Positions 6,206 to 50,817 are shown, counted from the stretch's first letter. The stretch is DNA of 64,000 nt from an uncultured Desulfobulbia bacterium (GCA_964653055.1 CAZZCA010000010.1:14619-78618), one strand, 5' to 3'. Notes: generated from the sequence alone by a model not told the origin. Made by a program: numbers and translations.

Positions 6206-7510
6206 TTATGATTTATTTATTAATGGCCTGAGTTGAGTCTGTAAGGAGAAGTTCAATATAAGAAGATAATAGAGAAGCTCATAGGTAGCCAAATTAAGGA
6301 ACATGGAACAAACAAAATAGCCAGAAATACTACAAAATATAGAGTCCTGCAAAGATAGATAGAATGGATCAATATCCTCATTACAGCCTCCTCTAAGCTT
6401 AAAATTTCCAAAGAACATCTGCGCACAAATTAATAAATAGAGTATACCGGCAAAAAAACCAGACTCACTCGCAAACTGAACAAAAGTATTATGAGCAACA
6501 AACGGCTGGGTTGTTGCATAATCGGAATAGGCTTTAACAAAATTGCCAGGTCCAACACCAGTCAACGGATGATCAGCCATCATTTTCAAACCAACTAGCC
6601 AAGAATCAAATCTTGATTGAGCTGTGTCAATGTCTGACAGCCCACCACTTAAAGAATCAACTCTCTGCAAAAGATATCCCCCTCCTTGATATACAATAGC
6701 AATCAATAAAAGAAGGGGTATTGCCATATAAAAAACTTTTCTTTCTGACCTGACGGCAACAATAATCATCACAATAGATAAGCTTATCAAGCCACCAAGA
6801 GAGCCAGTTAAGAAAACCACATGCCATGCCAGAGGGATACAGGCCCAAAGAAAATATCTTATAATTTTATTATTAAAATAATCTCCAACAAAAAATAAAA
6901 ACGGAATCGCCGTTACAAACAACATAGCAAAAACATTCTGGTCAGAATAAATACCCCGCATTGCTGGCCCACCTAACCGAGCCCCATACACAATATACAT
7001 TTGACCGGAAAAATACATTTCATGAGCCCATACAATATAATATACAATAGTAAACAATATTATAGCGGTAAAACATTTAAGCTTTTTAATATCATCAATC
7101 AGAAAAATAGAGACAAAATAGAACAATAAAGCTTTGTTCATATTCGACATAATAGTTGCAGGATCAAAAGTACTTGCTGAATACAATTTAACATCACGCA
7201 ACGACTCATTACCATACGGATTAAACAAATAAGATATAACAATACATAACCACAAAATAGCCAAATATAAATTCTGACTGTTTTTTAGACTCGCAAAATC
7301 AATCCTTCCTGCTAAAATCTTTATAAAAAAACCTACAAATGTCCCCATAGCAATCAGTTTAGACGCATGAAAATAACCAAAAATCCAGCTCCATATACTT
7401 TGGGGATGCAATACATTAAACATGTAATACGCAACAACACCAATCCAGGGGAAAAATACCGCAAGAAATGTGGCACCATATGTAATAGAATAAAAAAATA
7501 ATTTAGTCAT
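6206..7510 (-). CDS. O-antigen ligase/polymerase-like (Wzy_C) integral membrane protein; exosortase-A-associated putative O-glycosylation ligase type
   Basis: 434 aa, with many hydrophobic helices throughout and a central loop. Its position beside the TIGR03087-type GT matches canonical XrtA loci. Confidence 0.7.
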   Translation of the reverse strand: MTKLFFYSITYGATFLAVFFPWIGVVAYYMFNVLHPQSIWSWIFGYFHASKLIAMGTFVGFFIKILAGRIDFASLKNSQNLYLAILWLCIVISYLFNPYGNESLRDVKLYSASTFDPATIMSNMNKALLFYFVSIFLIDDIKKLKCFTAIILFTIVYYIVWAHEMYFSGQMYIVYGARLGGPAMRGIYSDQNVFAMLFVTAIPFLFFVGDYFNNKIIRYFLWACIPLAWHVVFLTGSLGGLISLSIVMIIVAVRSERKVFYMAIPLLLLIAIVYQGGGYLLQRVDSLSGGLSDIDTAQSRFDSWLVGLKMMADHPLTGVGPGNFVKAYSDYATTQPFVAHNTFVQFASESGFFAGILYLLICAQMFFGNFKLRGGCNEDIDPFYLSLQDSIFCSISGYFVCSMFLNLATYELLYYLLILNFSLQTQLRPLINKS

Positions 7511-7547
7511 TAATTTGCCATGAACCTACAGGAATCATTACCGATGA

Positions 7548-8495
7548 CTACTTAACTCCAATCATGTGAAGAGGGTGAAATAACTCTCCGACAATCGGCA
7601 CATCAATAAAGAGTAACACCAGAACCAGCAAAAAACAAAAAGAGGAATAAACCACAAGGCCTCGCTGCTTATAAAGTCTCTCAGGGTACTGAGCGGGACT
7701 ATCCTCCCAGAAGGCAAGGCGCATATACATCGGGATAAAACCAGCCAGAAAGGGCACACTTAAGATGAGCTCAATACGGTAGCGAATAAGAAAAACCCCA
7801 AAAAACAGACTAAAGGCTGCAGCATAATAAACAATGCTCAAGAGAAGCCGGTATTCATTATAGTAAGAAAATGAAGATCTGTATTTCCTGGCTGTTTCCG
7901 GGTCACCTATTCTTTTAAATTCAGCATAACGCTTTATGGCCATAAAAAAAGCCCCAATCATCCAGTAGGCAAGGATAAACGACAATGTCGGAGGATATGA
8001 CTGATTGATCGCAAACCAGCCTAGAAAAAGCCTGAGGGGATTATTTACAGACTCCGATAAAACATCAAGATAAGGTAAATCTTTCAGACGGATCGGAGGA
8101 ATATTGTACAGCTGCCCCATCACCAAAAGAGAAGCAAGACTCCAGAAAAAATAAAGATTAAGCTGCCAACCTACAACTAGACCCAATATAGCCAGAATCA
8201 CCCATTCCACATAAGCGATTTTCAGATTGACATCTCCGGAAGGAATTGGCCTTTTCTTCTTAACCGGATGAAGGGCATCTTTTGACGCGTCTAATATCTC
8301 ATTAATGGTATAATTACTCGAAGCAATTAGGCATGTCGCAATCAAAGCAATTACGATATCTGGAATTATTGACCAGGAAAAAACATCAGGGGAGTCAAAA
8401 CAGGCGAGGACAACTCCCGGAATCATAAAAACATTCTTAAACCAATTATCTGGCCGGGCTATCTTTATGTATGGGGCTATTCGCTTATAATTCAT
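7548..8495 (-). CDS. UbiA-superfamily prenyltransferase, polyprenyl-phosphate phosphoribosyltransferase-like (Rv3806c/DPPR-synthase-like subgroup)
   Basis: 315 aa with about 8-9 TM helices. ARPDNWFKNVF near the N-terminus. First Asp-rich motif region NYTINEILDASKDALHPVKKKRPIPSG (NDxxDxxxD-like, with E in place of the first D). Confidence 0.6.
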   Translation of the reverse strand: MNYKRIAPYIKIARPDNWFKNVFMIPGVVLACFDSPDVFSWSIIPDIVIALIATCLIASSNYTINEILDASKDALHPVKKKRPIPSGDVNLKIAYVEWVILAILGLVVGWQLNLYFFWSLASLLVMGQLYNIPPIRLKDLPYLDVLSESVNNPLRLFLGWFAINQSYPPTLSFILAYWMIGAFFMAIKRYAEFKRIGDPETARKYRSSFSYYNEYRLLLSIVYYAAAFSLFFGVFLIRYRIELILSVPFLAGFIPMYMRLAFWEDSPAQYPERLYKQRGLVVYSSFCFLLVLVLLFIDVPIVGELFHPLHMIGVK

Positions 8496-8508
8496 CCATT
8501 ATGTCTCT

Positions 8509-9219
8509 TTAATTTGTTATGACTGCGGCAATGCCATATAGCTCTCTCATGCTGCGGATATAAATGCACCCTGGGCATAATCCTTCCTGAAATGGGCCGA
8601 TAATCACAGGCTTCATGCCCGCATATTTAGCCCCTAACCCGTCCACCTCCACCCTGTCTCCAACATAAACAATTTCATCAGGCCGCAACCCCATTTGCTG
8701 AGCCGCCAGCTCAAACCCGTTACTATCAGGTTTAAAGCCTTCCACATCTTTATCACTTGCAGACATAATGATGGAGAAATAAGAACTTAATCCAAGAGCC
8801 TGTATTTTGGTATGGGCAGGATAGTCAGAAAAAACTCCTAACTTAACACCTTTTTCCTGTAATTTGCCAAGAACAACAGACACACCCTTTCTTCTGAAAA
8901 ATTTGATCAGGCAAAGAGGCCTTCTCTCAAACCATTCCTGAACAACAGACTCAACATCGCTAAGAGATTCTCCTGTTTTAATGACTGTTAAAGCAATTTG
9001 ACCAATTTGCTCTTTACTGTGCCTTAACTCTTCTTGAGCCCTACGATAATTATATATTATTTTCAGGGTCTTAAGAAATTTTATCGGACGGCAAATGAGA
9101 GTTGCCAACCAGAAACACATTGTCAGTCGAAGTGGAACTTGATGATAAAGTGTACCATCAACATCAAAAAGAATACCCTTAAAACCTGAAAACAAACTCG
9201 TTTCAGCATCTAAACCCAT
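8509..9219 (-). CDS. HAD-superfamily hydrolase (phosphatase)
   Basis: 236 aa. Motif I is ILFDVDGTLYH. C-terminal motif YVGDRVEVDGLGA (HAD motif IV-like). Confidence 0.75.
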   Translation of the reverse strand: MGLDAETSLFSGFKGILFDVDGTLYHQVPLRLTMCFWLATLICRPIKFLKTLKIIYNYRRAQEELRHSKEQIGQIALTVIKTGESLSDVESVVQEWFERRPLCLIKFFRRKGVSVVLGKLQEKGVKLGVFSDYPAHTKIQALGLSSYFSIIMSASDKDVEGFKPDSNGFELAAQQMGLRPDEIVYVGDRVEVDGLGAKYAGMKPVIIGPFQEGLCPGCIYIRSMRELYGIAAVITN

Positions 9220-9222
9220 AAT

Positions 9223-10146
9223 TTATTTGATCACCGAAATGGTTCGGGAAACAAAATAAACCTGCAACAACAGCAACAGATGTGGAACTTGAGAGGTCTC
9301 AATTTTAGCTCTAATCTTAAACAAAAATAAAATGCTGGGAAGACAATACAGAAAGGCAACAAAACCCATTGGGGTATTATAATACGCAGACCCTGCAAAT
9401 AAAATAGGCAAAAAAGCTCCAAAGTAAACAGGAATCAAGAGACTGGGCAGTTCCTTAAAGGAAAAGCCATGGCTCAGCAACCCTGAAAAATTACTTTTTC
9501 CTCGCCATAATTCTTTCAAAAAAAACTCTCTGACAGTGGCGGCCTCCCCCAAATGAACTACTTGAATCTTGGCATCTGAGACAACCCTGCCATATTTTTT
9601 AATCCTATAGCACAGATCAACATCTTCACAGGTAATCAAGTCCTCATTAAAACCATCCACCTTCAAAAACTTCTCTCTACGCACAAACAAATTCATTGAC
9701 TCCAGCCATTCTACATCTTGAACAGCCTTTTCCTTTTTCCTCACAAGATACCAAGCCCTCTGAACCCATGTTGCGTTCTCCGGAATATTAGGGGGCGCAC
9801 CCCAGGCGACAATATCCATTTCTCCAAAATAAATTGATGCCTTAACAAGCATATCACTTGTTACCAGACAATCTGCATCAATAAACACCAGAATCTCTCC
9901 CTGGGCTCGAGCAGCTCCAATGTTCCTTAAACCAGAGACATTGGCTTCCTCGTCCTGCATCACAACTGCTCCTTTTCCCTCAGCAATTTCATAGGTTTTA
10001 TCAGTTGAGCCATTATCTATTACCAATACCTCAAGAAGGTGTGGAGGATAATCAAGCGTAGAAATTGATTCAAGGCAAGACGGCAGATAGTTCTCTTCAT
10101 TATAGGCTGGAATAATAATTGATATAAGGGGTAAATTATCTGCCAT
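9223..10146 (-). CDS. Glycosyltransferase family 2 with C-terminal membrane helices
   Basis: 307 aa. ISIIIPAYNEENYL, VIDNGSTDKT, and the DxD motif as VFIDADC. Hydrophobic C-terminal third. Confidence 0.85.
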   Translation of the reverse strand: MADNLPLISIIIPAYNEENYLPSCLESISTLDYPPHLLEVLVIDNGSTDKTYEIAEGKGAVVMQDEEANVSGLRNIGAARAQGEILVFIDADCLVTSDMLVKASIYFGEMDIVAWGAPPNIPENATWVQRAWYLVRKKEKAVQDVEWLESMNLFVRREKFLKVDGFNEDLITCEDVDLCYRIKKYGRVVSDAKIQVVHLGEAATVREFFLKELWRGKSNFSGLLSHGFSFKELPSLLIPVYFGAFLPILFAGSAYYNTPMGFVAFLYCLPSILFLFKIRAKIETSQVPHLLLLLQVYFVSRTISVIK

Positions 10147-11912
10147 TATGAAGCCACCTTGTAAACCATTAGATGAGGGCCAAAACGTTGCCCATTATTT
10201 TTCACTTCATAAAGTTTAACAAACTTCTTGTTTCTTGCCAGATTATCAATAAACTTGATTCTGCTAGACTTCACATCACCCCCTGTCCCGCGTTCATTAA
10301 AACCATCAAAAGAACCGGCATTCAATATTAAATATTGAACACCTTGATTTCTAATGTCCTCCAGTACAGGGTAAGATTCATCCCAATTAATGAACCTTAA
10401 ATCAAATCTTGGTCTATCAAGAGTTGCATAATACTTTTTCTTTAATTGCCAATATTTCGCCTTTCCTGGAGCGATATCATTTAACAAAATGACCATTTTA
10501 TGGATATTTTTACTACTATTTAACAATTGAACATCAAATTGACTTTGATGTTCAGGAGATCCTTCCATCATAATGGCGGATTCAGACTCAATATTTTTCT
10601 CAATCCAATTCTTAGTTAAAATCCTTGTATCAACATTGGATAGTCGACTCACAAAAGAGTAGGATGTCGCACCGGGATGCCAAATCATCATTATCATCAA
10701 ACATACCAGAATAAGTCTGGCCATATTCTTAGGAAGACACCTGTCTCTTAAGAAGAGGTACAACTGACTTGCACCGTATCCAGCAACAAGGAAAACAAGA
10801 GGCAACAAGGGCAGCAGATAACGCGAGAATACCAAATGCGATTGCGCCTGTGAGATAGCAAAATAATAAGGAATAAAAAACATTGCCAATAGCAAGGCAA
10901 TTTTTGATCTTGAAAAAAAAGCCCACCCCATTGAACAAAATGCCAAAACAAACATAGGGGTTCCGAGTTCAAACCTCAGTTGCTGAAAATAAAACAAGGC
11001 AGGTGACAGGCCAGCCACTCTATCTTGAGCGCTAATCCCTGGTAATTTGTCAACGAATGTTTTTGAAACAACAAAAAGGCCCTTGATGGTTTTACCCAGA
11101 TGACAGAAAGTATTAAGATACCCAGGCTCTACAGCAAGGGACACAACAATAAAAACTCCCAGCACAACCAATACCTTCTTCAAGACAACGGCCAGAGGGT
11201 TCCCTGCCTTAACACTGCCTATTATTACCGCAGCCAGCAAAGGAATTAAAATTACAATCCCCGGCAATTTAGTGGCAAATGCCAGTCCTCCCCAGAAACC
11301 AGCCCAAATGTAATTTCTGTTATTATCTTCTCTAGTAATCCTAAAGATATACAACCATGACAATAGCAGCAATAATACCAGAAGACCATCAACTGTCGCA
11401 TAATGGCTGGTCTCAACATGCAACCCTGAAAATGCCAGTAAAATTACTCCCAATAACCCACATTCCTTACCACCAATCCCTGAAGCGATTTTATAAAGAA
11501 CAATACAGGAAGCAATGCCTATACAGGCCGAAGCGGCTCTGGCGCCCAAGTAAAATGACCCTTCATGGGCCACGAAGAAACCGGCAAATTCCTCCGGACT
11601 GGCAACAACTCCCCCAACAAGCAAAAAGACAAAGACCATGGCCAATTCCAAAAAAATAATAAAATAAAGGCCACCTTTTCCAGTTCTGGTAAAATCAAAA
11701 TCACCTGCTGCCAACCGAAGCGCTCGATGCATTTCAAAAGGCTCATCCACATGTAAAAGTTCCGGCAAACCAAAACCTATGGCATAAAACCGTAACAATG
11801 CGGCTATCAACAAAACAAAAGGAACAGCCAGGCCCCAGGAATGGTTAGTAAATTTTATTTTTTTACGACCTGTCACTTCTCTATTCCATAAATTCCTGAT
11901 ACCACAATTCAA
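10146..11912 (-). CDS. GT-C fold, lipid-carrier-dependent glycosyltransferase (GT39/GT83, PMT/ArnT-like) with a C-terminal soluble domain
   Basis: 588 aa with more than 10 TM helices. First-loop motif LLHVDEPFEM resembles the PMT/ArnT DE loop. About 170 aa of non-membrane C-terminus. The track start is a TTG overlapping the upstream asnB-like gene by 32 nt; a GTG at 11876 (5 nt after that stop) is an alternative start. Confidence 0.7.
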   Translation of the reverse strand: MNCGIRNLWNREVTGRKKIKFTNHSWGLAVPFVLLIAALLRFYAIGFGLPELLHVDEPFEMHRALRLAAGDFDFTRTGKGGLYFIIFLELAMVFVFLLVGGVVASPEEFAGFFVAHEGSFYLGARAASACIGIASCIVLYKIASGIGGKECGLLGVILLAFSGLHVETSHYATVDGLLVLLLLLSWLYIFRITREDNNRNYIWAGFWGGLAFATKLPGIVILIPLLAAVIIGSVKAGNPLAVVLKKVLVVLGVFIVVSLAVEPGYLNTFCHLGKTIKGLFVVSKTFVDKLPGISAQDRVAGLSPALFYFQQLRFELGTPMFVLAFCSMGWAFFSRSKIALLLAMFFIPYYFAISQAQSHLVFSRYLLPLLPLVFLVAGYGASQLYLFLRDRCLPKNMARLILVCLMIMMIWHPGATSYSFVSRLSNVDTRILTKNWIEKNIESESAIMMEGSPEHQSQFDVQLLNSSKNIHKMVILLNDIAPGKAKYWQLKKKYYATLDRPRFDLRFINWDESYPVLEDIRNQGVQYLILNAGSFDGFNERGTGGDVKSSRIKFIDNLARNKKFVKLYEVKNNGQRFGPHLMVYKVAS

Positions 11913-13761
11913 ACATTAAAATACTCCAGAGAATTGTAGCATAATTTCTTTGCCCACTCTGATGCTCACCCCAGATTGAACGAAGTATTTTCATATTGAA
12001 AAAATGATTGACACCAGCACTTTTCCCAAAGAGAAAATCACCTGCCATCTTCCGCAACTCGCCCCTCAACCAATCTGCCAGGGGAACAGAAAACCCCATC
12101 TTTTTCCTATACAGAATTTCATCCGGCAGAATTCCCTGACAAGATCTCTTCAAGATATACTTCTTCTCACCATGACGAAATTTTAATTCTGCAGGAATAG
12201 ATGCCGCATACTCAATAACCTTATGATCAAGAACTGGTGCCCGAACCTCTAAAGAATTTGCCATACTCATTCGGTCCACCTTAACCAGAATATCTCCGGG
12301 GAGATAAGTCTTTAAATCAGTATAAAGAATTTTCGACAGATGACAGTCAGTATCAGCCTTCTGATAATAATGCTCCGTGACAGAGAAAGAGTCATAGTCC
12401 CCTATCTGCTTTTTGGTATCATCATTTAACAATAAACGCCATATCCGATCATCAAACTCACTATTAGTCAGGTAATAACCATAATCAGCTTCAAATCCCA
12501 ACGAATGTATCAGGGTATATCCCTTCCGAAACAATGATTTATTCCCTTTGGCCAACATACCCGCCAGAAAAGGGAAAAACTGCCTCCTGATTACTAACGG
12601 AATTCTCTTGCGAAGGTTATTTTCTATATCGTCTAAATGATATTTCTCGTACCCTGCAAAATTCTCGTCACCGCCATCTCCGGACAAGGCTACTACAACC
12701 TTTTGGCGTGCAAGTTTTGACACATAATATGTCGGCACTGATGAGGCATCGGCAAATGGTTCATCAAAATGATAAACTAGCTTCTTCAAAACTTGCTCAG
12801 CATTTTGATTTACAGACAATTCATGATGATCGGTGTGATATTTTTCTGCTACAAGACGGGCAAATTCCACTTCATCATATTTTTTACTGTCAAACCCAAT
12901 TGAACAAGTTGTTACAGGAGTATTGCTCTGCCTCGCCATTAAGGCCACCACAAGACTTGAATCTATCCCGCCACTGAGAAAAGCCCCAAGAGGAACATCA
13001 CTTACCCGCCGCATCCGAACACTATCTGCTAATAATCCTATCAGGTTCTCTGCAACAACAGACTCATGATCAGCTACTTGATTGGCAAACGAAACATCCC
13101 AATACTCACGGGTTGATATTCCTTCAGGGTTACAGAGCAGGTAGTGGCCAGGCATCAACTTATTAATACCACTATAAATCGTCTTTGGGTCAGGAACATA
13201 AAGATATTTGAAATAATCAGAAAACGCCTCAAAATTAATCTGCTTCTTGATATCCGCGTCTTGTAAGATACTCTTAATTTCAGAAGCAAAAAGAAATGTT
13301 TTCCCATCAAAAAAATAATAAAGGGGCTTCTTCCCGATTCGATCCCGAGCCAGGAAAAGAGTCTTTTTAGCTTCATCCCATATGGCAAAGGCAAACATTC
13401 CCCGCAAATGCTGCAAACAGCCTGTACCAAACTCCTGATAAAGACTTAAAAGAACTTCTGTATCGCAATCACTGAGAAATGTATACCCCCGGCCTTCAAG
13501 ATCTTTGCGCAATGCCGGGAAATTATAGATCTCACCATTATAAACAATCCATACTTTCCCATCCTTGCTAGACATCGGCTGATGCCCCAATTCCGACAAG
13601 TCAAGAATACTAAGTCGCCGATGACCCAATCCAATTGAACCATCCACATAAACACCAGCATCATCAGGCCCTCTGTGCTTAATTACATCGCACATTTTTT
13701 CAACAAGACCAGGAGAGACCGAACCACCATATAAATTATATTTGCCTGCGATCCCACACAT
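11881..13761 (-). CDS. Asparagine synthase (glutamine-hydrolysing) family amidotransferase, EPS-locus paralogue 1
   Basis: 626 aa. MCGIAG N-terminal nucleophile Cys. PP-loop FLSGGIDSS. Confidence 0.9.
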   Translation of the reverse strand: MCGIAGKYNLYGGSVSPGLVEKMCDVIKHRGPDDAGVYVDGSIGLGHRRLSILDLSELGHQPMSSKDGKVWIVYNGEIYNFPALRKDLEGRGYTFLSDCDTEVLLSLYQEFGTGCLQHLRGMFAFAIWDEAKKTLFLARDRIGKKPLYYFFDGKTFLFASEIKSILQDADIKKQINFEAFSDYFKYLYVPDPKTIYSGINKLMPGHYLLCNPEGISTREYWDVSFANQVADHESVVAENLIGLLADSVRMRRVSDVPLGAFLSGGIDSSLVVALMARQSNTPVTTCSIGFDSKKYDEVEFARLVAEKYHTDHHELSVNQNAEQVLKKLVYHFDEPFADASSVPTYYVSKLARQKVVVALSGDGGDENFAGYEKYHLDDIENNLRKRIPLVIRRQFFPFLAGMLAKGNKSLFRKGYTLIHSLGFEADYGYYLTNSEFDDRIWRLLLNDDTKKQIGDYDSFSVTEHYYQKADTDCHLSKILYTDLKTYLPGDILVKVDRMSMANSLEVRAPVLDHKVIEYAASIPAELKFRHGEKKYILKRSCQGILPDEILYRKKMGFSVPLADWLRGELRKMAGDFLFGKSAGVNHFFNMKILRSIWGEHQSGQRNYATILWSILMFELWYQEFME

Positions 13762-27223: not shown

Positions 27224-27850
27224 TTAGTTTACTAAAAAATCATCTAAAATTGGCAAAAGACCTTCAATGAATAGCCGTTGCCGTTCTATATCACTCTCCA
27301 AATGATCAGCTAACCCCGTTACCCTTATTAGAGCTCCGTCTGAGCGCTGCCTTAACAGAGAATCAAAAATCATCCAGGCACGATCCAAGTACTCATTAGC
27401 CACTACCCGGCCCCGTCCCTGATACCAATAATGAGCCAGCTGTTTATCCAAACCCTTTTGCAGGAGCATCTGGTTAATCTGGATTTGGTCCCCATCAATA
27501 CCGGTCACCATGATCATCTTATCCAAAACAGTATTCCAGCCACTGCCCGGCATACAATGTTTGGGAGAATGGATGATCTCGCCCTCTGTCTGGGACTCGT
27601 AAACCCCAAGATAAAGCCAGAGCGAATAGCCCTTCGAGTCCCTATATTCCTGCATCAGATAATGATCAACCCCAAGGGCCTCCAAAATTTCAGGACTAAA
27701 CTCCCGGCTATTTACTGAGGTAAAAGGCCCTATCGCTTGAGGAAACTTGGTCAATGATCTCTTAAGGGGAACCGGCTCGACAGTTCCCAGAAAATTGACA
27801 TAAACAATGACCGTGCAAAGAAGAATTATCGTGATCACAAAATTCTTCAT
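27224..27850 (-). CDS. epsI: EpsI-family exosortase-associated protein
   Basis: 208 aa with an N-terminal TM helix. HSPKHCMPGSGW motif. Lies directly downstream of xrtA with a 1-nt gap. Confidence 0.85.
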   Translation of the reverse strand: MKNFVITIILLCTVIVYVNFLGTVEPVPLKRSLTKFPQAIGPFTSVNSREFSPEILEALGVDHYLMQEYRDSKGYSLWLYLGVYESQTEGEIIHSPKHCMPGSGWNTVLDKMIMVTGIDGDQIQINQMLLQKGLDKQLAHYWYQGRGRVVANEYLDRAWMIFDSLLRQRSDGALIRVTGLADHLESDIERQRLFIEGLLPILDDFLVN

Positions 27851-27851
27851 T

Positions 27852-28706
27852 TTATTTTATTCTCCCAATTGGCTTACGACCTTTCTTTTTCATTAACTCT
27901 GATAGAAGCCATAGCACAACAAATGAAACAACAAAGACCAGCCACCCAGTCAGCTCATGAAGAAACCCGGAACTCCAGGCCGGATCAAATTTCGTAAGAA
28001 GCCCGGTTGCCGCCACCCGAAGAGCATTGGCGCAAACAGCAACTGGAACAGCCAGAAACATCAGGACAAAACACGGTAAAGCCCTGCCATGCATCATATA
28101 TCCCAGGAAAAAGGCCAGGGTGATCAGGGTCATTAAAGAACGAATCCCGCTACAGGCATCCACCACCTCAAGAGTGGTATGGGTTAGATGAACAATATTT
28201 CCTTCCTGGAAAACAGCAAGACCTATCAAGCTGAGAAAAAAAACAGCGACCTTTGTGGCCACCAGCTTTAGAGGAAAGGCCACCGAATTATAAAGAATAT
28301 AGGGTAGTGGCACGGCGAAAAACAAAATACCCACGGGAAAACGAAGAAGAGCCATCACTCCTGTCCCTTCCAGATAAAGGATCAGGCCCAAAAGCAAGAC
28401 AATAAAGGATACCCGGCGGGTAAAGAACTCTGCCCCGACAAAGCCAAGAAGATAGAGAACCAGACCAGCCACCACCAACACCAAACCCAGGGTATATGGC
28501 CTGGAAGGCGACATTTTTAATTGGGAAAAACGGTCTTTAAGATAATAAAGGGATATGAGAGGGATTAGAAGACCATGAGAGTAATTATCGTCTTCCCAGA
28601 GATCAATAAACCAATCCCCAAAAACACGATAATAAAGAACCACGAGCAAGAGAGAAACAACAAGCCATTTACATAATCGAGATTTCTCAAGAATTCTCAG
28701 TGACAA
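27852..28706 (-). CDS. xrtA: Exosortase A
   Basis: 284 aa polytopic membrane protein. WEDDNYSHGLLIP near the N-terminus. Catalytic-Cys motif LEVVDACSGIRSL. TTG start preceded by AGGAGG at 6 nt. Confidence 0.9.
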   Translation of the reverse strand: MSLRILEKSRLCKWLVVSLLLVVLYYRVFGDWFIDLWEDDNYSHGLLIPLISLYYLKDRFSQLKMSPSRPYTLGLVLVVAGLVLYLLGFVGAEFFTRRVSFIVLLLGLILYLEGTGVMALLRFPVGILFFAVPLPYILYNSVAFPLKLVATKVAVFFLSLIGLAVFQEGNIVHLTHTTLEVVDACSGIRSLMTLITLAFFLGYMMHGRALPCFVLMFLAVPVAVCANALRVAATGLLTKFDPAWSSGFLHELTGWLVFVVSFVVLWLLSELMKKKGRKPIGRIK

Positions 28707-28811
28707 TTCAGCCCTCCTATAATCAAAAAACCAGCTAGTAAAACAATATCATTTGCTCAAATAATAACAAGGGAATTGTTCATATTTTACAAGAACAACT
28801 ATATGTTTTCA

Positions 28812-28846
28812 CACAAAAAAAGCCCCAGCGATAATCGCTGGAGCTT
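28812..28846 (-). terminator. Rho-independent terminator after the PEP-CTERM gene
   Basis: Minus-strand RNA reads AGCUCCAGCGAUUAUCGCUGGGGCU followed by U7. The stem is 7 bp plus 3 bp. It lies about 30 nt after the stop at 28875. Confidence 0.65.
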
Positions 28847-28874
28847 TTTCATCAACGGAGAGAAGAGAAGAGGA

Positions 28875-29492
28875 TTATTTCCGGGACAACCGTCTACGGC
28901 TGTAGCCAGCCAGACCGGCAAGACCGGTTCCGAACAGAAGCATGGAGGCTGGCTCCGGTACCGGGTTGGTTGAGCCACCGGCGACCTTCGTATGCTGCTC
29001 GCCATCAACACCCATAAGAGTATAAGACATTTCCCAGGCACCACCCTCATCCCAGGCCCATCCTGCACCTGAATCAGTATTAAACATCAGGGGGTCAATA
29101 AGGTCATAGGCAAAGGTAAGCTGCAAAGGGTCATTGTCCCTCGTAACAGGTGTGCCAGAACCACCAGCCTTACTAACAGCCCATTTACCACCATCAAGTG
29201 TAGGCGCAGCCCAATCAGTAGGATTAATCATGGTAAAATCAGAAGCGCTCACATTCTCGAAGATATCACCTTCAATCTCAATTTCAAGATGGTTAACATA
29301 AACACCACCCTCGCCTACAAAGAAACTGAACAAAACGGTGCCAGTTCCATCTGCCTCATTCATCCCACCATCATAGAGGACATCAACAATACCATGCTGG
29401 TCAAAAGACACAGGTACCGCCTGAGCATTACCTATGGCCATCAAAGAAGCCGCCGCCGCAATCACCAATGATCTCATCATAATTTTTTTCAT
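28875..29492 (-). CDS. Secreted PEP-CTERM sorting-domain protein (putative exosortase substrate)
   Basis: 205 aa. Signal peptide MKKIMMRSLVIAAAASLMAIGNAQA. The C-terminus VPEPASMLLFGTGLAGLAGYSRRRLSRK is a PEP motif + TM helix + Arg-rich tail. SD GAGGAG. Confidence 0.9.
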   Translation of the reverse strand: MKKIMMRSLVIAAAASLMAIGNAQAVPVSFDQHGIVDVLYDGGMNEADGTGTVLFSFFVGEGGVYVNHLEIEIEGDIFENVSASDFTMINPTDWAAPTLDGGKWAVSKAGGSGTPVTRDNDPLQLTFAYDLIDPLMFNTDSGAGWAWDEGGAWEMSYTLMGVDGEQHTKVAGGSTNPVPEPASMLLFGTGLAGLAGYSRRRLSRK

Positions 29493-29577
29493 CTGTTAAC
29501 TCCTCGAGTCTCTCTTTTACGTTGAATATCCTAAAACCAAATACACTAATCATAAATAAATACTTAAACCTACCAAT

Positions 29578-29594
29578 AAGCACCATGCGTGCCA
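29578..29594 (-). promoter_or_regulatory. Sigma-54 (-24/-12) type promoter upstream of the PEP-CTERM gene
   Basis: The minus strand reads TGGCACGCATGGTGCTT. GG and GC are spaced exactly as in TGGCACG-N4-TTGCW, with one mismatch in the -12 box. It lies about 90 nt upstream of the ATG at 29492. Confidence 0.6.
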
Positions 29595-29870
29595 AAGGCG
29601 CAGATTTTATCAAAAAACTTGCGCGACACCTTATCACCCTGAAATTACAGCAGATTCCAACATTGACGCCACCGCACAACCCCTAGTCCTCGTTAGGTTG
29701 AGCCCAATAACAACCGGGACCAGGGCAAAAAAACAAAATAAATATACCGGGTTTTCCGGATTCCCGAAAGCAGACACCCGCCCTGAACCCCTACCAGCAA
29801 AGCCTTTTCTCTATTTTTTCCACAATTCCGGAAAAAAATCCGGCAAGCCGAACCGGTTTTTCTCTCAAAA

Positions 29871-29900
29871 CAAAAAAAGAGGCCTGCACAAGCAGACCCC
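29871..29900 (-). terminator. Rho-independent terminator after the PilZ gene
   Basis: Minus-strand RNA reads GGGGUCUGCUUGUGCAGGCCUC followed by U7. The stem is 7 bp including one G-U pair. It lies about 36 nt after the stop at 29936. Confidence 0.6.
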
Positions 29901-29935
29901 TTTCAACAAAACTGCATTTTTTACTTAAAACATAT

Positions 29936-30484
29936 CTACATCATGGGCAGCCCCAGATGGGTACCCACTGCCTGGGTCAGCCTTAAGTCTTCAAAGGCTA
30001 TCCCGGCCTGGTACACGTCCTCATCATTCTTTGCTTCACACCACCGGACCTGAGCCGAGCCGGACAAGCCAGGTGCCGAAAAATCAGAACCGAACTGCAG
30101 GGCAATTATGTCATTTGGCAATAATTGCTGCCGGCTTTCCATACGCAGACCACCTAAACTCAGATCAATTGCAAAGGCCTTATCATCCAGGAGCTTCCCG
30201 CTTCCAGCATCGGCACCACCAGCAAAAAGAGACAGGGCAATCCGCTCCGTAACCCGCCGATACCGCCTACGGCCCTGGCTGGTTACAAAGCCATACTTCT
30301 CCGCATCTTCATGAATCATCTCACTACCACGCAGATACTGACTACATCGACCATAACGCCCGGTTGAGCAAAACATCTCAATATGCTCAGGCATGGGGAT
30401 GTACAACCCGCCCTTAGTCATATTGCACGCGTTGGCATTCTCCTCCACCCAATGAGGACATTTTTCGCCACGGCGGTTTTTCAT
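29936..30484 (-). CDS. PilZ-domain (c-di-GMP receptor) protein with an N-terminal four-Cys domain
   Basis: 182 aa. PilZ motifs GRRRYRRV (RxxxR) and IDLSLGG (DxSxxG) about 30 aa apart. The N-terminus KCPHW..ACN...FCSTGRYGRCSQY has 4 Cys. Confidence 0.75.
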   Translation of the reverse strand: MKNRRGEKCPHWVEENANACNMTKGGLYIPMPEHIEMFCSTGRYGRCSQYLRGSEMIHEDAEKYGFVTSQGRRRYRRVTERIALSLFAGGADAGSGKLLDDKAFAIDLSLGGLRMESRQQLLPNDIIALQFGSDFSAPGLSGSAQVRWCEAKNDEDVYQAGIAFEDLRLTQAVGTHLGLPMM

Positions 30485-30542
30485 ATTATCAAATCCCTAT
30501 TCTTTAAGATAAAAACAAGTTGAACTTAACTAAAATTACACA

Positions 30543-30558
30543 GCAATAAGGGTGCCAA
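30543..30558 (-). promoter_or_regulatory. Sigma-54 (-24/-12) promoter upstream of the PilZ gene
   Basis: The minus strand reads TTGGCACCCTTATTGC followed by T, a full match to TGGCAC-N5-TTGCW. It lies 14 nt after the activator stop and about 60 nt upstream of the ATG at 30484. Confidence 0.7.
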
Positions 30559-30570
30559 GCATCACAAATC

Positions 30571-32067
30571 TCACCAACCAGCCCGCTTCGCCAAACCATA
30601 ACGCTTAATCCGATCATACAATGCGGTCTTGCCAATCTGCAGCATCCTGGCAGCATCCTGCACATTGCCATCACATTGGCAAAGACATTTATAAACGACC
30701 TCTCCCTCAAATTCCGCCATCATATCCCGCAGAGAGCTCTCTACCATATGGGCTTCAAGTTCACCCAGATAATCATCCAGTGCAGATGCAGACATTTTCT
30801 CCTCAATGACCAGATCATGCTCGGCAATCACATTATTTTTGGCAGTTAACACCGCCCGCTGAATCACATTCTCCAGCTCCCTGACATTCCCCGGCCAATT
30901 ATGGAGGAGAAGCTTATTGATGATAGTATCCGGCAGATAATCAATCTCCTTCTTGAACGCTGCCCGGTAATGGCGGACAAAATGGGTGGCCAGGTCAACA
31001 ATATCCTCCTTCCGATCCCTTAACGGGGGGATAACGACATTGATAATATTTAGCCGGTAAAAGAGATCCAGTCGAAACTTCCCCCTGTCCACCGCTTTTA
31101 CCAAATCAACATGGGTAGCAGCAACAACCCGGACATCTACAAAAACCGGTTTCGAGCCACCAACCCTGACAACCTCGCCATTTTGCAATACCCGCAGTAG
31201 AGCCGCCTGCATCCTGGGGCTGATATCACCAATCTCATCCAAAAAGATAGTGCCGCCATTAACAACCTCAAACTTACCCTTCTTCCGGGCAGCGGCCCCG
31301 GTAAATGCCCCTTTTTCATAACCAAAGAGATCACTTTCCAGCAGATTATCATTAATGGTGTTGCAGTTTACCTTGAGATAGGGCTTATCCTTACGGTCAC
31401 TACTAGACCTGATCAGATCAGCCACCAGCTCTTTACCAGTCCCTGACTCACCGGCAACAAGAACCGTGGCATCCGTCTCTGCCACCTGACTTATAATTTC
31501 CCGCAACTCCCGCATTTGACGACTGGAGCCGATCATTTCATCGGTCTGATCCCGGGCAGATATTTTTTTCTTTAAGTGATTTACCTCCCGGGCAAGGGCA
31601 CTATGGATTTTTTCTCTTTCCTTGAGTTCCTCAATCTTCTGATGAAGAACCTCCTCAATATTTTTATGAAATTTCTGGAGCTCAAGTTCCTGCACTTTTC
31701 TTCTTGTCACATCCCGCATAACAAGCATCAACAGAAGATCACCCTTATAACCCCAAAATGGTGCAATACTGAACTCCACAGCAATATCATCCACCCGGGC
31801 CTCACGCAATTCAACCTGACCCAGTCCATTTGCAGATAATTTATTAATTTCATCAATATCGTAAGAATCGCAGAGATTTTGCGGACAGAGCTGGCCAACC
31901 ATATCCCCCATCACCGACACAGCACTTGGGTTCATGTATTCGATTCCGCAATCCTGGCGAATCAGGACCACCATCTCCGGCATTACATCAAGCAATGACC
32001 GCCAATTGCGAACAAGACGCTTAACTTCTTCCTTCTTCTGTTCAAGCTCTATAGTTAAAGTATCCAC
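30571..32067 (-). CDS. Sigma-54-dependent transcriptional activator (PAS - AAA+ - Fis-type HTH)
   Basis: 498 aa with a GTG start and an AGAGGA SD. Walker A is GESGTGKE. Sigma-54 contact loop is EKGAFTGA. C-terminal HTH is GNVQDAARMLQIGKTALYDRIKRYGL. The N-terminal roughly 130 aa are PAS-like, and there is no receiver domain. Confidence 0.85.
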   Translation of the reverse strand: MDTLTIELEQKKEEVKRLVRNWRSLLDVMPEMVVLIRQDCGIEYMNPSAVSVMGDMVGQLCPQNLCDSYDIDEINKLSANGLGQVELREARVDDIAVEFSIAPFWGYKGDLLLMLVMRDVTRRKVQELELQKFHKNIEEVLHQKIEELKEREKIHSALAREVNHLKKKISARDQTDEMIGSSRQMRELREIISQVAETDATVLVAGESGTGKELVADLIRSSSDRKDKPYLKVNCNTINDNLLESDLFGYEKGAFTGAAARKKGKFEVVNGGTIFLDEIGDISPRMQAALLRVLQNGEVVRVGGSKPVFVDVRVVAATHVDLVKAVDRGKFRLDLFYRLNIINVVIPPLRDRKEDIVDLATHFVRHYRAAFKKEIDYLPDTIINKLLLHNWPGNVRELENVIQRAVLTAKNNVIAEHDLVIEEKMSASALDDYLGELEAHMVESSLRDMMAEFEGEVVYKCLCQCDGNVQDAARMLQIGKTALYDRIKRYGLAKRAGW

Positions 32068-45891: not shown

Positions 45892-48180
45892 ATGTTAAGA
45901 CTCGGTCACCATCTCATCTCCCGCATTCTTTTTCTCGTCCTCTTTACAACCATCTGCGCCTGCTCCAACCCTGAGGAAGACAAGACAAGTCATTACCAGA
46001 GCGGAATGGAGCACCTGGCCAAGGAAGAGACCAAAGCCGCCATTCTTGAATTCCGCAATGCCGTCCAGATCGACCCCAAATACGCTGACGCCCGCTACCA
46101 ACTTGGCCTTGCCTACATGAAAACAGGGGAAATCAATAAGGCCTTCCAGGAATTGCAGCGAGCCAGCAGCCTTGATCCAACAAATCTTGATGCCATGCTA
46201 AAAACCGCCGAAATCCTCTTTCTGGCCAAAGACTATTCAGAGAGCCTGACTAGCACCCTCAAAATCCTGGAAAACGAGCCAGACAATGTCCCGGCCCTGA
46301 CCCTGCTTACCCACCTCAAGCTAAATGACGGCAACAACACCGCTGCAGCCACCACTCTGGACAAGGCAATCAGCCTCAAGCCTGATTCAGACAAGCTCTA
46401 TCTCCTAAAAGCCAGAATTGCCAATATCAACCAGAACCCGGATGAAACAGAAACTTATCTGCAAAAAGCCATCAGCCTTAACCATGACAACAAACAAAAC
46501 CACCGGGCCCTTATTGCCTTTTACATCGCCAGCAAACAAATAGACCAGGCCGAAGAGCAATTAATTGAAATGACCAAAATCTTCCCCGAGGACTTCAACC
46601 CCTTCATCAACCTTGCCGGCTTCTACCAGCGAAGTGGCAAAAAAGAAAAAGCAGCCCTGGCCATTGACCAGGCCCTGGCCCTTGACCCTGAAAACGAGAA
46701 CATCCATCTTTTCAAGGCAGGATTCCACCAAAAAAACCATGAGCCGGATCTTGCCGAAAAAACCCTGCTCCAGGCCATCGCTGCCCTGCCTGAGGCAAAA
46801 TCCTGCCAGACCATGCTGGCTGATATCTATGTTGAGCAGATGAAGCTAACCGAAGCCGAGAACATCCTTCAGAAATTACTCGTCTTAAAAGACATCCCAC
46901 CCGGGGCCAAACTGGTCCAGGCCAAGATAGCAGTAATCAATAATGACAATGACAAGGCCCTGACCATCCTCGACAAATTGCTGGCTGATAATCCCAAATG
47001 GGGAGAGGCCCATCTCCAGCAGGCCCTGGCCCACCAGAACAAGGGTAATGAAGAGTTATCACAAAAAGCCGTGGAAGAAGCGGTGAAATTCACCCCGGGC
47101 AACTCCCAGGCCCATACCCTGCTGGCCCATCTCCACCTGGGCAAGAAAAACCAGGAACTGGCCAGAAAAGAGGCCGCCATTGCCATAAAACTTGAACCCC
47201 GCAATTTTCGGGCTGCCCTTATCCTCGGCAAGACCTTCCTTGCCGACCATGAGCCGCAAAAGGCCATCAAGGTCTTTGAGAAAATTTCCCGCATTCTCCC
47301 AGAAAACATTGAAGTTCTCCATAACCTTGCCATCAGCCGAATGGCAACCAGGGAACCGGAAAAAGCAGCTGTATCCTTCCGCAAAATACTTGAGCTGAAC
47401 CCCGACCATTCCCCCAGCCTGGCCGCCCTGGTTTCCATCACCATCCGGAGCAAAGGCGCAGGAGAAGCCGTAAAACTGGTTCAGCAGCAATTAGCAAAAT
47501 CACCGGACACCCCGGGGCATTTAATGCTACTGGGAGACCTCTATCTCCAGCAGAAACAATTAACCGACGCAGCAGCCACTTTTCGCCAGGCCCAACAGGT
47601 CGCTCCGGAAAACCCAAGAACCTACCTACGTTTGGGCCAGGTACTTAAAATGAAAGATCAGCCCGAAAAAGCCATGGCCGTCTATCATAAGCTCCTGACC
47701 AGACACCCAGGCTCCCTTGCCGGCCTGATGGAACTTGCCAGCCTGCAGGAAACGACCAGCCAGCCTAAAGAGGCCAAAGCAAATTACCAGAAGATCCTGG
47801 CAATCAAACCAGACTTTGCCCCGGCCGCTAATAATCTGGCCTGGCTGGTCACCCAGGAAGCAAACCCCGACCTGGGCGAAGCCCTGCGCCTTGCCCTTGT
47901 TGCCAAAGAGCATATGTCAGAAGACCCCAATGTCAGTGACACCCTGGGCTATATCTACTACCTGCGCGGCTCCTACAGCCTGGCTGTCAGCCAGCTGACC
48001 GAGGCAGCCAGCCTCCTTTCCGACTCACCCACTGTCAATTACCATCTGGCCATGGCCCTTAAAGGAAAAGGGGAGACAGAAAAAGCCCTGACCGCCTTAA
48101 AAAGATCACTGTCCCTAAGTGGTGACTTCCCCGAAAAAAGCAAGGCCAAAGCCCTGCTTCGCAGGTGGCAACAGAGCTGA
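45892..48180 (+). CDS. prsT: PEP-CTERM-system TPR-repeat lipoprotein
   Basis: 762 aa. Lipobox-like LFTTICAC|S. TPR repeats throughout. Divergent from the export operon, as in canonical XrtA loci. Confidence 0.75.
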   Translation: MLRLGHHLISRILFLVLFTTICACSNPEEDKTSHYQSGMEHLAKEETKAAILEFRNAVQIDPKYADARYQLGLAYMKTGEINKAFQELQRASSLDPTNLDAMLKTAEILFLAKDYSESLTSTLKILENEPDNVPALTLLTHLKLNDGNNTAAATTLDKAISLKPDSDKLYLLKARIANINQNPDETETYLQKAISLNHDNKQNHRALIAFYIASKQIDQAEEQLIEMTKIFPEDFNPFINLAGFYQRSGKKEKAALAIDQALALDPENENIHLFKAGFHQKNHEPDLAEKTLLQAIAALPEAKSCQTMLADIYVEQMKLTEAENILQKLLVLKDIPPGAKLVQAKIAVINNDNDKALTILDKLLADNPKWGEAHLQQALAHQNKGNEELSQKAVEEAVKFTPGNSQAHTLLAHLHLGKKNQELARKEAAIAIKLEPRNFRAALILGKTFLADHEPQKAIKVFEKISRILPENIEVLHNLAISRMATREPEKAAVSFRKILELNPDHSPSLAALVSITIRSKGAGEAVKLVQQQLAKSPDTPGHLMLLGDLYLQQKQLTDAAATFRQAQQVAPENPRTYLRLGQVLKMKDQPEKAMAVYHKLLTRHPGSLAGLMELASLQETTSQPKEAKANYQKILAIKPDFAPAANNLAWLVTQEANPDLGEALRLALVAKEHMSEDPNVSDTLGYIYYLRGSYSLAVSQLTEAASLLSDSPTVNYHLAMALKGKGETEKALTALKRSLSLSGDFPEKSKAKALLRRWQQS

Positions 48181-48190: not shown

Positions 48191-48889
48191 ATGAGCAAAA
48201 TCTTTGCCATTGGCGACATCCATGGCTGCCACCAGACCCTTAACGAGTTACTGGACCTGATTAATCCCAGGGCCGGCCAGGACAGAATCGTCTTTCTCGG
48301 AGATTATATCAATCGGGGACCGTGTTCAAAAGAGGTTATTGAGCAAATAATCTCCGTAAAAAAAACATACCCAGGCACCATAACCCTCATGGGCAACCAT
48401 GAGCAGATCCTGTTGGCCTCTCTGGCCGGTGGCGAAACAGATTTTTTCCTGAGAATGGGAGGGAAACAAACCCTGGCCAGCTATGGCCTGAAAGAAAACG
48501 AAAGCAGCAGCTTATTAGCCAGGATACCGGCCAGCCATCTTGCTTTTCTCGAGAACCTGATGTTCCTGTGGCATACCGAAGATTACATCTTTGTCCATGC
48601 CGGTCTTCAGCCCGGCCTGCACCTGAGCCAGCAATCCGCCCAATGGTGCTGCTGGGCCCGGGATGATTTTATAAATTCAAACTTTGATTTTGGCAGGAAA
48701 ATAATCTTTGGTCATACCCCATTCTCCAACCCCCTGATGACTGACAATAAAATAGGGATTGACACCGGCACTGTTTACGGAGGAAAGCTCACCTGCCTGG
48801 TTCTTCCAGAAAGAGAACTCATAAAAGTCGATTGCCGGGACAAACCCATCTGGCCAGGCTCTTTAAAAGAGGTTCCGCCAACCAGATAA
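48191..48889 (+). CDS. Metallophosphoesterase, PPP-family Ser/Thr(/Tyr) protein phosphatase-like
   Basis: Start taken at the ATG at 48191 (MSKIFAIGDIHGCH) rather than the overlapping track start. Motifs are GDIHG, GDYINRG (N where D is canonical) and GNHE. Confidence 0.8.
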   Translation: MSKIFAIGDIHGCHQTLNELLDLINPRAGQDRIVFLGDYINRGPCSKEVIEQIISVKKTYPGTITLMGNHEQILLASLAGGETDFFLRMGGKQTLASYGLKENESSSLLARIPASHLAFLENLMFLWHTEDYIFVHAGLQPGLHLSQQSAQWCCWARDDFINSNFDFGRKIIFGHTPFSNPLMTDNKIGIDTGTVYGGKLTCLVLPERELIKVDCRDKPIWPGSLKEVPPTR

Positions 48890-50132: not shown

Positions 50133-50663
50133 TCAATTACTGCGAACCCAAGCTGCCTGGGGTCCTTTATCCCCCTGGGAAAGACCGAAAACCACCGAAT
50201 CACCCTCAGCAAGATCATCCATCACCAGATTTTTCAAGGAATTCTCATGGAAATAAACGTCCTTCCCCTCCAAGGTGGCAATAAACCCATAGGACTCAAA
50301 CGGGGAAAGGCTCTTAATTGTCCCCAACACACTGCCCGCATCTCCGGCATCAGCCATCTTCTGACTCTGCCGTCTTTTACGCTGCAATTCCTTGAGCTGC
50401 AACCCAAGGGTGTCAAAGGCCTCAGTCACCAGGGGCCTGACCAGCTCACCCTTGCGGGTTACCACCACTGTATCATTGGGCACACCGGCGACAAGCTTCA
50501 CCTCATGGCCACCCTGCTTCTGATGGCTTGTTGCCTCAATGCTTATCCGCAGGTTATGAACCAGACCGGGATGATGCCGCCCTAACCGCTCTTTCTCCTC
50601 TTCAATTTTTTCCTGCCACGATTTTCTCAGATCAAGATTACGGCCTTCTACCTTAAGCTCCAT
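50133..50663 (-). CDS. hpf: Ribosome hibernation factor (HPF/RaiA, S30AE family) fused to a C-terminal cold-shock domain
   Basis: Start at the ATG at 50663 (MELKVEGRNLDL), with AGGAGG 5 nt upstream; the track start is a GTG two codons earlier. The N-terminal roughly 100 aa are HPF-like. The C-terminus GTIKSLSPFESYGFIATLEGKDVYFHENSL...GDSVVFGLSQGDKGPQAAWV aligns by eye to CspA (RNP1/RNP2 positions). Confidence 0.7.
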   Translation of the reverse strand: MELKVEGRNLDLRKSWQEKIEEEKERLGRHHPGLVHNLRISIEATSHQKQGGHEVKLVAGVPNDTVVVTRKGELVRPLVTEAFDTLGLQLKELQRKRRQSQKMADAGDAGSVLGTIKSLSPFESYGFIATLEGKDVYFHENSLKNLVMDDLAEGDSVVFGLSQGDKGPQAAWVRSN

Positions 50664-50817
50664 AGACACCTCCTGAAAGGCGGGGTAATTTATCTAAAAA
50701 TAAATCGACCCCAGATAATTGAAAAGAACCAACAAGGGGAAACGAGAAAACAATCCGCATCCCATAAAAACAGAATATCATATTAATGATCTCTGTTCCA
50801 ATTTTCTTACAAAAAAA

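Follow-up and report, generated by a model that had tools for sequence, protein, structure and literature searches.

A 64,000-nucleotide (nt) stretch of DNA from an uncultured Desulfobulbia bacterium (GCA_964653055.1, CAZZCA010000010.1:14619-78618; hereafter the window) holds what is probably the regulatory core of an XrtA-like PEP-CTERM/exosortase exopolysaccharide (EPS) locus of the Desulfobulbales. The core is a module whose parts all lie within ~3.2 kb, running from the gene for a sigma-54 enhancer-binding protein (the activator) through a gene for a PilZ-domain protein to the gene for a PEP-CTERM protein. Two predicted -24/-12 sigma-54 promoters, P1 ahead of the PilZ gene and P2 ahead of the PEP-CTERM gene, are well supported by sequence. 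We give a probability of about 0.62 to this being the regulatory core and working as follows. A long sugar-nucleotide operon upstream would read into the gene for a one-component PAS/AAA+/helix-turn-helix (HTH) enhancer-binding protein. On a signal at its PAS domain, which may be redox or metal given the Cys cluster of the orthologues, the activator would bind TTCCGGAA-type sites ~165-240 nt upstream of the PEP-CTERM promoter and use ATP to open sigma-54 RNA polymerase complexes at P2, and likewise at P1 via another site. The output would be a burst of a PilZ receptor for cyclic di-GMP (c-di-GMP) from P1 and of the exosortase cargo protein from P2, made from two short terminator-bounded units. 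The downstream exosortase/EpsI pair would then sort the cargo into the polysaccharide layer, and PilZ would most likely couple the output to the c-di-GMP level, via the polysaccharide machinery or by feedback on the activator. In this mechanism, the binding of the TTCCGGAA sites by this activator and its action at P1 and P2 are inferred, as are the signal at the PAS domain and the part played by PilZ.

Results

The module was first picked out from the sequence alone, as a regulatory island made of an activator gene, two sigma-54 units and an exosortase gene (the original prediction). Every element on that list was recovered by reading the minus strand and listing open reading frames (ORFs), with offsets of 1-4 nt. 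Protein domains were called with Pfam and NCBIfam models at model-specific cutoffs. The parts of the module, all on the minus strand, are:

30571..32067, minus strand: sigma-54 enhancer-binding protein (activator), 498 aa, GTG start; PAS sensor, AAA+ domain and Fis-type HTH
31705..32004, minus strand: PAS sensor domain of the activator, approximately residues 22-121; PAS_8 and PAS_9 matches in orthologues
30542..30557, minus strand: P1, predicted sigma-54 -24/-12 promoter TGGCACCCTTATTGCT, 5' of the PilZ gene; called by pattern and weight matrix
29936..30484, minus strand: PilZ-domain protein, 182 aa; N-terminal four-Cys domain (residues 1-70) and PilZ domain (residues 72-171)
29868..29904, minus strand: intrinsic terminator after the PilZ gene; 13-bp stem (29904..29875) then U7, -20.2 kcal/mol
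29824..29845, minus strand: candidate distal enhancer site CCGGA-T6-TCCGG, with an exact TTCCGGAA inside at 29833..29826
29754..29761, minus strand: candidate proximal enhancer site ATCCGGAA, a 7/8 match to the TTCCGGAA core
29579..29594, minus strand: P2, predicted sigma-54 -24/-12 promoter TGGCACGCATGGTGCT, 5' of the PEP-CTERM gene; top weight-matrix score
28875..29492, minus strand: PEP-CTERM protein, 205 aa; signal peptide and tail VPEPASMLLFGTGLAGLAGYSRRRLSRK
28815..28849, minus strand: intrinsic terminator after the PEP-CTERM gene; 16-bp stem (28849..28817) then U7, -23.8 kcal/mol

P1 stands 13 nt past the activator stop and 57 nt ahead of the PilZ ATG; P2 stands 86 nt ahead of the PEP-CTERM ATG and has GTGC at -12. 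The GG and GC dinucleotides are 10 nt apart at both sites, P1 being an exact match, which bears out the earlier description of P1 as a full match on the same strand just after the activator stop and of P2 as a correctly spaced element ahead of the PEP-CTERM gene. Only P1 matches TGGCAC-N5-TTGC exactly in the window, and allowing one mismatch gives 7 occurrences against 4.1 expected, a pattern count that is not significant by itself. A scan with a sigma-54 weight matrix had been proposed as a check. Using a matrix that we built from the published consensus rather than training it on data, P2 ranks first and P1 second over ~128,000 positions. The third-ranked match, TGGCATAAGTGTTGCT at 53875-53890 (plus strand), lies 55 nt ahead of a flagellar operon that starts at 53944 (flgF/flgG-like, flgA, flgH, flgI, flgK) and is probably a real sigma-54 flagellar promoter. 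Since a flagellar rod operon is a typical sigma-54 target, this site serves as an internal positive control for the matrix. The fourth-ranked match, TGGCAAAGATTTTGCT at 48194-48209 (minus strand), sits just beyond the stop of a PrsT-type lipoprotein gene (prsT) and is directed into that gene in antisense orientation. No minus-strand gene follows, and the match may be due to chance or mark an antisense promoter.

For comparison we used 21 loci from species-representative genomes and three metagenome loci, with genome labels of Desulfobia, Desulforhopalus, Desulfurivibrio, Desulfobulbaceae and Thermodesulfobacteriota. Their ORFs were labelled by comparison with the proteins of the window, and promoters were tabulated for 25 loci (L002 and L003 duplicate L001). 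The metagenome copies L025-L028 are near-identical to the window (one single-nucleotide polymorphism and one 1-nt indel) and were dropped as uninformative. A sigma-54 site scoring at least 14, on the gene strand and 20-140 nt ahead of the PEP-CTERM start, is present in 14/14 loci that have the gene after PilZ, including five in which the gene is inverted (in L012 the promoter was counted at 9058, just inside an over-long ORF call). The density of sites at this score is 0.065 per kb per strand over 492,000 positions, a figure that includes the true sites, which form most of them. Ahead of PilZ, a site scoring at least 11.4 is found in 17 of the 25 tabulated loci, usually 55-125 nt before the start, and in several loci the PilZ promoter begins 4-14 nt beyond the activator stop, as it does in the window. 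Judged by eye, with no spacer alignment computed, spacers from the more distant loci show no obvious alignment with one another. Given this and the variable gene orientation, the recurrence of the promoters more likely reflects selection than shared ancestry of neutral DNA.

Two further sequence features accompany these promoters in some relatives. The inverted PEP-CTERM genes of L007, L009, L013 and L016 share a conserved leader, CATGTTACATTTGCAAATGAATAACAGCTAAGGAGAAAAAAGATG, between the sigma-54 promoter and the start codon; it may serve to control translation or act at the RNA level. Between the activator gene and the PilZ promoter, L001 (~7560-7790) and L009 (~5830-5960) carry a long GC-rich palindrome (...GTAGGAGCGGGCCATGCCCGCGA...TCGCGGGCATGGCCCGCTCCTAC) that resembles a repetitive extragenic palindromic (REP) element or a miniature inverted-repeat transposable element (MITE) and does not occur in the closely related L007.

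Inspection of the 300 nt that precede each PEP-CTERM promoter brought out a recurrent element, TGTTTTCCGGAAAAG.TGGATTT. Exact TTCCGGAA cores number 34 in 290 kb, against ~4 expected by our own estimate from base composition, and 16 of them are placed 125-280 nt ahead of a PEP-CTERM promoter. In a scan of 287 kb, both strands included, the composite TTCCGGAA-N3-9-YGGAWTT was found 12 times. Nine of these sites precede PEP-CTERM promoters by 140-280 nt, eight of the nine in promoter orientation; the remaining three belong to L015 (in the spacer that follows PilZ, at the contig end) and L018 (adjoining a remnant of the activator gene). Many loci have two cores, ~35-50 nt apart. In the window, the exact TTCCGGAA at 29833..29826 is 239 nt upstream of P2 and ATCCGGAA at 29761..29754 is 167 nt upstream, the latter in the position class at which relatives carry the composite (-160 to -186). 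The CCGG palindromes noticed earlier (29754-29760 and 29828-29843) are thus the window's copies of a conserved element, and the suggestion that they are enhancer sites agrees with the conserved distance of this element from PEP-CTERM promoters in relatives. Because it is located upstream of these promoters and is almost absent otherwise, the TTCCGGAA element is credible as a cis-regulatory site at enhancer distance and hence as a candidate enhancer. From the conserved gene linkage, and from that only, we infer that the adjacent activator binds it.

In most loci, the DNA upstream of P1 codes for the C-terminal end of the activator. An enhancer common to P1 and P2 was considered and rejected: the sole resemblance (30710-30731 to 29824-29845) falls inside conserved coding sequence, where it encodes activator A-E-F-E residues. 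Inspection by eye for an IHF site gave near-matches only. Rfam returned no riboswitch (c-di-GMP riboswitches included) or known small RNA in the 443-nt spacer between the PilZ and PEP-CTERM genes, with the window searched at gathering thresholds and 28600-30700 at E<=1; the sole matches are below threshold and fall on the terminator hairpin. In L018, two TTCCGGAA cores lie directly past the glmS stop (7300-7600).

The activator matches PAS_8 (22.8 bits, cutoff 21.8), Sigma54_activat (224 bits), AAA_lid_14 and HTH_8. It has no receiver domain, and its N-terminus is a PAS domain that is recognized in the orthologues by PAS_8 (16/16) and PAS_9 (14/16), in line with the earlier claim of a PAS sensor in place of a receiver. 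On the PrsR model TIGR02915 (cutoff 502.6) the activator reaches 331.8, in an alignment limited to residues 157-492. Walker A (GESGTGKE), GAFTGA and the Fis-type HTH residues are invariant in the activator alignment, and with these intact the protein should be competent as a sigma-54 activator. The PAS domain of 15/16 orthologues has a Cys-rich insert, C..Cx4C...RCx3CP, of which the window activator keeps only C61 and C66, with a 3-residue deletion (31860-31900, minus strand, residues ~57-75). A reasonable guess from these sequences is that the family uses a metal or an Fe-S centre as its redox sensor, with the centre degenerate in the window activator. A profile search of the PDB with the PAS alignment gave PAS-kinase matches only, none of them significant (E>=0.3). 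A word-indexed homologue search with the PAS region returned 2 proteins only and was uninformative on distribution; the orthologues were taken from the loci instead.

The PilZ domain scores 37.1 bits against PF07238 (cutoff 22.5). The family comprises 23 clusters at 90% identity from Desulfobulbaceae-type metagenomes, and the motifs RRRYRR (RxxxR, R72-R77) and DLSLGG (DxSxxG, D107-G112) are invariant in 23 sequences. The AlphaFold2 model has a predicted local distance difference test score of ~90 for the PilZ barrel and <50 for the N-terminal Cys domain, too low to assign that domain a fold, and Foldseek matches the model to the c-di-GMP-bound PilZ domains of BcsA, PP4397, MrkH, Alg44, MotI, VCA0042 and YcgR. 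With motifs and fold both kept, the protein is predicted to bind c-di-GMP, as the original prediction of a c-di-GMP receptor supposed. It is of the small adaptor type, with no enzymatic or DNA-binding domain. The N-terminal domain has four conserved Cys and an invariant KGGLYIPMP and matches nothing in Pfam. Its 70 residues used as a query recover 74 representative clusters at 50% identity, nearly all of 160-190 aa, a length that indicates the same two-domain architecture.

The PEP-CTERM protein matches PF07589 (31.2 bits) and TIGR02595 (23.8 bits, cutoff 16). It has a C-terminal sorting signal of PEP motif, hydrophobic helix and basic tail (in VPEPASMLLFGTGLAGLAGYSRRRLSRK) as well as an N-terminal signal peptide, and is likely to be the exosortase substrate. 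No other such ORF is present in the window, as had been stated. The mature region is poorly conserved, with 27% identity to the L001 counterpart.

The order UDP-glucose dehydrogenase (UGDH), PAS activator, PilZ is found in 17/18 of the genome-collection loci that retain the activator, and in L001. Across the 19 loci the activator orthologues are full length, with 57-66% identity. In the exception, L008, two sugar genes lie between activator and PilZ. In L018, a Desulfobia metagenome-assembled genome (MAG), all that is left of the activator is a ~130-nt remnant, in which GAFTGA...VVDGG joins the HTH end, with glmS on one side and PilZ on the other. PilZ is intact there, which argues mildly for an activator-independent role of PilZ. 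The PEP-CTERM gene follows PilZ in 14 loci and is inverted in five of them. In the most distant loci, L020-L023, PilZ is the end of the cluster and flagellar genes come next. The contig of L022, with a bacterial PilZ gene and flanks, is binned in a MAG labelled Promethearchaeota and is probably a binning contaminant. L009 carries insertions between the PEP-CTERM gene and the exosortase gene (8270-9510) and between the exosortase and EpsI genes (11850-12690). Judged from ORF translations only, the inserts hold nucleotidyltransferase/HEPN-like pairs, a beta-CASP/MBL-like gene and two small ORFs, one of which resembles the 23S rRNA IVP four-helix-bundle family.

The hairpins followed by U7 that had been noted after the PilZ and PEP-CTERM genes are both strong terminators (-20.2 and -23.8 kcal/mol). 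No terminator is present between the activator gene and PilZ, so of the two monocistronic sigma-54 units originally proposed only the PEP-CTERM gene stands; PilZ is not demonstrably monocistronic, and read-through into it from the upstream operon is possible. The PilZ terminator closes the upstream operon, and the PEP-CTERM gene is a true stand-alone unit. From the PEP-CTERM terminator to the exosortase start there is only a weak sigma-70-like match (GTGAAA-17-TAAAAT, 28812..28784, minus strand, 9/12), and the exosortase gene and ~27 kb downstream need their own promoter.

The module is set in a PEP-CTERM/exosortase-type EPS locus of ~45 kb that spans 45708 to 1144 (minus strand) with tightly packed minus-strand genes. 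The cluster encodes an export protein, an outer-membrane barrel, a chain-length determinant, a tyrosine kinase, glmS, several nucleotide-sugar dehydrogenases/epimerases, many glycosyltransferases, two asparagine synthases, a flippase and a Wzy-like polymerase. The priming transferase passes TIGR03013 (EpsB_2; 477, cutoff 393), and the best matches to the XrtA-locus markers TIGR03007, TIGR03018 and TIGR03027 fall below their respective cutoffs. All but four of 37 gaps in the cluster are <=86 nt, and the gaps from PilZ to PEP-CTERM (443 nt) and from PEP-CTERM to exosortase (168 nt) are among the four largest, which fits the earlier picture of units wedged into an otherwise continuous operon array. 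The activator gene begins 64 nt past the sugar-nucleotide genes with no promoter motif in that interval, and the activator is probably made constitutively as part of the upstream sugar-nucleotide operon. Three further genes bear on the system:

27852..28706, minus strand: exosortase, 284 aa, TTG start preceded by AGGAGG
27224..27850, minus strand: EpsI protein, a separate ORF of 208 aa; passes the EpsI model TIGR02914
45892..48180, plus strand: PrsT-type TPR lipoprotein, divergent from the EPS cluster; TIGR02917 355.6, cutoff 312.2

The exosortase matches Exosortase_EpsH, passes the generic model TIGR02602 (173.3, cutoff 105.6) and fails the XrtA model TIGR03109 (165.6, cutoff 208); its best partial matches are to the N-terminal halves of the XrtD and XrtW models. 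The TTG start after AGGAGG was correctly read; the gene's label as xrtA is supported only to the level of a generic exosortase. Outside the cluster, a 178-aa ORF at 50133-50669 (minus strand) encodes an unusual fusion of a Ribosomal_S30AE/sigma-54-modulation (HPF-like) domain with a C-terminal cold-shock domain.

Discussion

Single-gene operons with spacers of >200 nt account for more than 65% of PEP-CTERM genes (PMC1569441). In Proteobacteria such spacers hold motif 1, which is 17 nt long with TTTACA at its 3' end; a sigma-54 motif comes ~63 nt after it, and the start codon another ~71 nt on (PMC1569441). The phylogenetic profile of this motif arrangement matches PrsK, PrsR and PrsT, and Haft et al. 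2006 stated that further regulators and motifs were still to be discovered (PMC1569441). RpoN dependence and the transcription start of a PEP-CTERM gene have been shown in Aquincola, and pepA is RpoN-dependent in Aquincola and Zoogloea (PMC9850573). In Desulfovibrio vulgaris the PrsR-type DVUA0057 was enriched at PEP-CTERM gene targets by DNA-affinity-purified chip (DAP-chip; PMC3333781). Although the arrangement in the window had at first been taken as unusual, sigma-54 single-gene PEP-CTERM operons with large spacers, predicted by Haft et al. in 2006, are therefore the published norm (PMC1569441).

The module shares with the PrsK/PrsR/PrsT system the single-gene PEP-CTERM operon, the large spacer, a sigma-54 motif some tens of nt ahead of the start codon, an upstream activator box, a Fis-HTH AAA+ activator, PrsT, and an EpsH/EpsI locus that includes a TIGR03013 EpsB_2 protein. 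In contrast to PrsR, its activator has a PAS domain for a receiver and scores below the PrsR cutoff, and no kinase is encoded in the window. No HisKA or HATPase domain was found in the scanned window ORFs of at least 150 aa, and the earlier statement on the missing kinase holds within that set. The box differs as well: the PrsR box is a 17-mer ending in TTTACA at ~63 nt, whereas the window lineage has a TTCCGGAA-type box at a distance of 125-280 nt. The unit also includes a PilZ gene under a sigma-54 promoter, inserted between the activator and the cargo gene. The contrast with the classical PrsK/PrsR pair drawn in the original prediction is right in that the activator is not PrsR, and had overlooked PrsT (45892..48180, plus strand).

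The PilZ protein has the beta-barrel, RxxxR and DxSxxG of the receptors BcsA, Alg44, PP4397, YcgR, MotI and MrkH, and like the BcsA/Alg44 type it is encoded within a polysaccharide locus. Unlike BcsA and YcgR, it is a stand-alone protein of 182 aa with a Cys-rich N-terminus and is not fused to a synthase or a YcgR-N domain. By analogy it could gate the polysaccharide machinery as the PilZ domains of BcsA and Alg44 do, or feed back on the activator in the style of PspA-PspF. One-component enhancer-binding proteins are set by an adjacent partner in PspF-PspA, NifA-NifL and FleQ-FleN. The window shares with these systems an activator without a receiver and a small neighbouring gene apparently under the same sigma-54 control, a layout typical of a feedback loop. 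It differs from the PspF-PspA type in that the putative partner is a PilZ c-di-GMP receptor with a four-Cys N-terminal domain, and from FleQ or VpsR in that c-di-GMP would not be sensed by the activator itself.

Several points weigh against the proposed mechanism. The weight matrix is our own, untrained and based on the published consensus. The window's composite sites are degenerate, with cores present and a poor second half-site, and no TTCCGGAA-type element is found at enhancer position upstream of P1, which may use another site or another activator. The window PAS domain is short of two or three conserved Cys and may sense differently from those of its relatives. In L020-L023 the activator-PilZ pair has no PEP-CTERM gene adjacent. 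Lastly, with PrsT present, a PrsK/PrsR pair elsewhere in the genome may be the real PEP-CTERM activator. If so, the promoters would be real, the PAS activator would control only PilZ or other genes, and TTCCGGAA would be a local PrsR box or an unrelated site. We consider this quite unlikely. PrsT is above its cutoff and co-occurs with PrsK and PrsR in Haft's profile, the link between activator and TTCCGGAA is a putative one, and no TTCCGGAA lies upstream of P1. However, TTTACA or TGTAAA, the 3' hexamer of the published 17-nt motif with which we looked for PrsR boxes, does not occur in the 120 nt preceding any of the 14 PEP-CTERM promoters, the conserved element is much farther away (125-280 nt), and the PAS activator stays beside PilZ, and usually beside the PEP-CTERM gene, in ~20 genomes.

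A different role for PilZ is possible, if on the unlikely side: an anti- or co-activator of the PAS activator, as PspA is to PspF, NifL to NifA and FleN to FleQ. The activator would induce PilZ from P1 and c-di-GMP-bound PilZ would tune P1 and P2, a c-di-GMP-gated loop in place of control by phosphorylation. The activator-PilZ pair is the most conserved unit, being adjacent in 18/19 activator-retaining loci and persisting without a PEP-CTERM gene, PilZ has its own sigma-54 promoter directly after the activator gene, and the protein is a small adaptor-type PilZ with intact c-di-GMP motifs. Yet the interaction between PilZ and the activator is purely hypothetical, the intact PilZ beside the activator remnant of L018 points to an activator-independent function, and the closest structural matches regulate polysaccharide synthases (BcsA, Alg44), so that direct action on EPS fits equally well. 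It is highly improbable, by comparison, that the -24/-12 matches and CCGG palindromes are due to chance, with the genes owing their transcription to read-through or to sigma-70 promoters. The insignificant one-mismatch count and a weak sigma-70-like match over the P2 region (29576..29549, 9/12) would allow it. This explanation is nevertheless already disfavoured: P1 and P2 are the top sites of the window in the right position and orientation, sites recur in 14/14 and 17/25 loci despite non-aligning distant spacers and inverted genes, the TTCCGGAA element is almost exclusive to PEP-CTERM spacers, and a strong terminator shields the PEP-CTERM gene.

The general logic, a sigma-54 single-gene PEP-CTERM operon, is already published; what is new is the lineage-specific PAS activator, the PilZ gene and the distal element. 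Full-text literature on PilZ, PEP-CTERM, exosortase, sigma-54, PAS and c-di-GMP gave no description of the arrangement. It is a lineage-specific alternative to PrsK/PrsR and an incremental advance on known regulatory logic, not a new kind of system. A more far-reaching version, which we hold as unlikely, is that a self-contained Desulfobulbales module replaces the PrsK/PrsR phosphorelay, with a Cys-cluster PAS activator that may respond to redox, O2 or metal, its own TTCCGGAA enhancer, and a sigma-54-induced four-Cys PilZ protein whose binding to the activator or the EPS machinery depends on c-di-GMP. If true, both a redox signal and the level of a second messenger would feed into expression of exosortase cargo, and PilZ would be the partner switch of a sigma-54 activator, of which no description was found in the literature searched.

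Control of exosortase-anchored coat proteins has so far been known only from the proteobacterial PrsK/PrsR model. This locus and its ~20 relatives offer a concrete second solution, made up of an activator family, a candidate enhancer (TTCCGGAA-N-GGATTT), two promoters and a dedicated c-di-GMP receptor, in a compact module with a candidate motif defined well enough for direct testing. It would tie c-di-GMP, and possibly redox sensing, to the display of matrix proteins in sulfate-reducing and cable-bacteria-related lineages, which form aggregates and biofilms in sediments.

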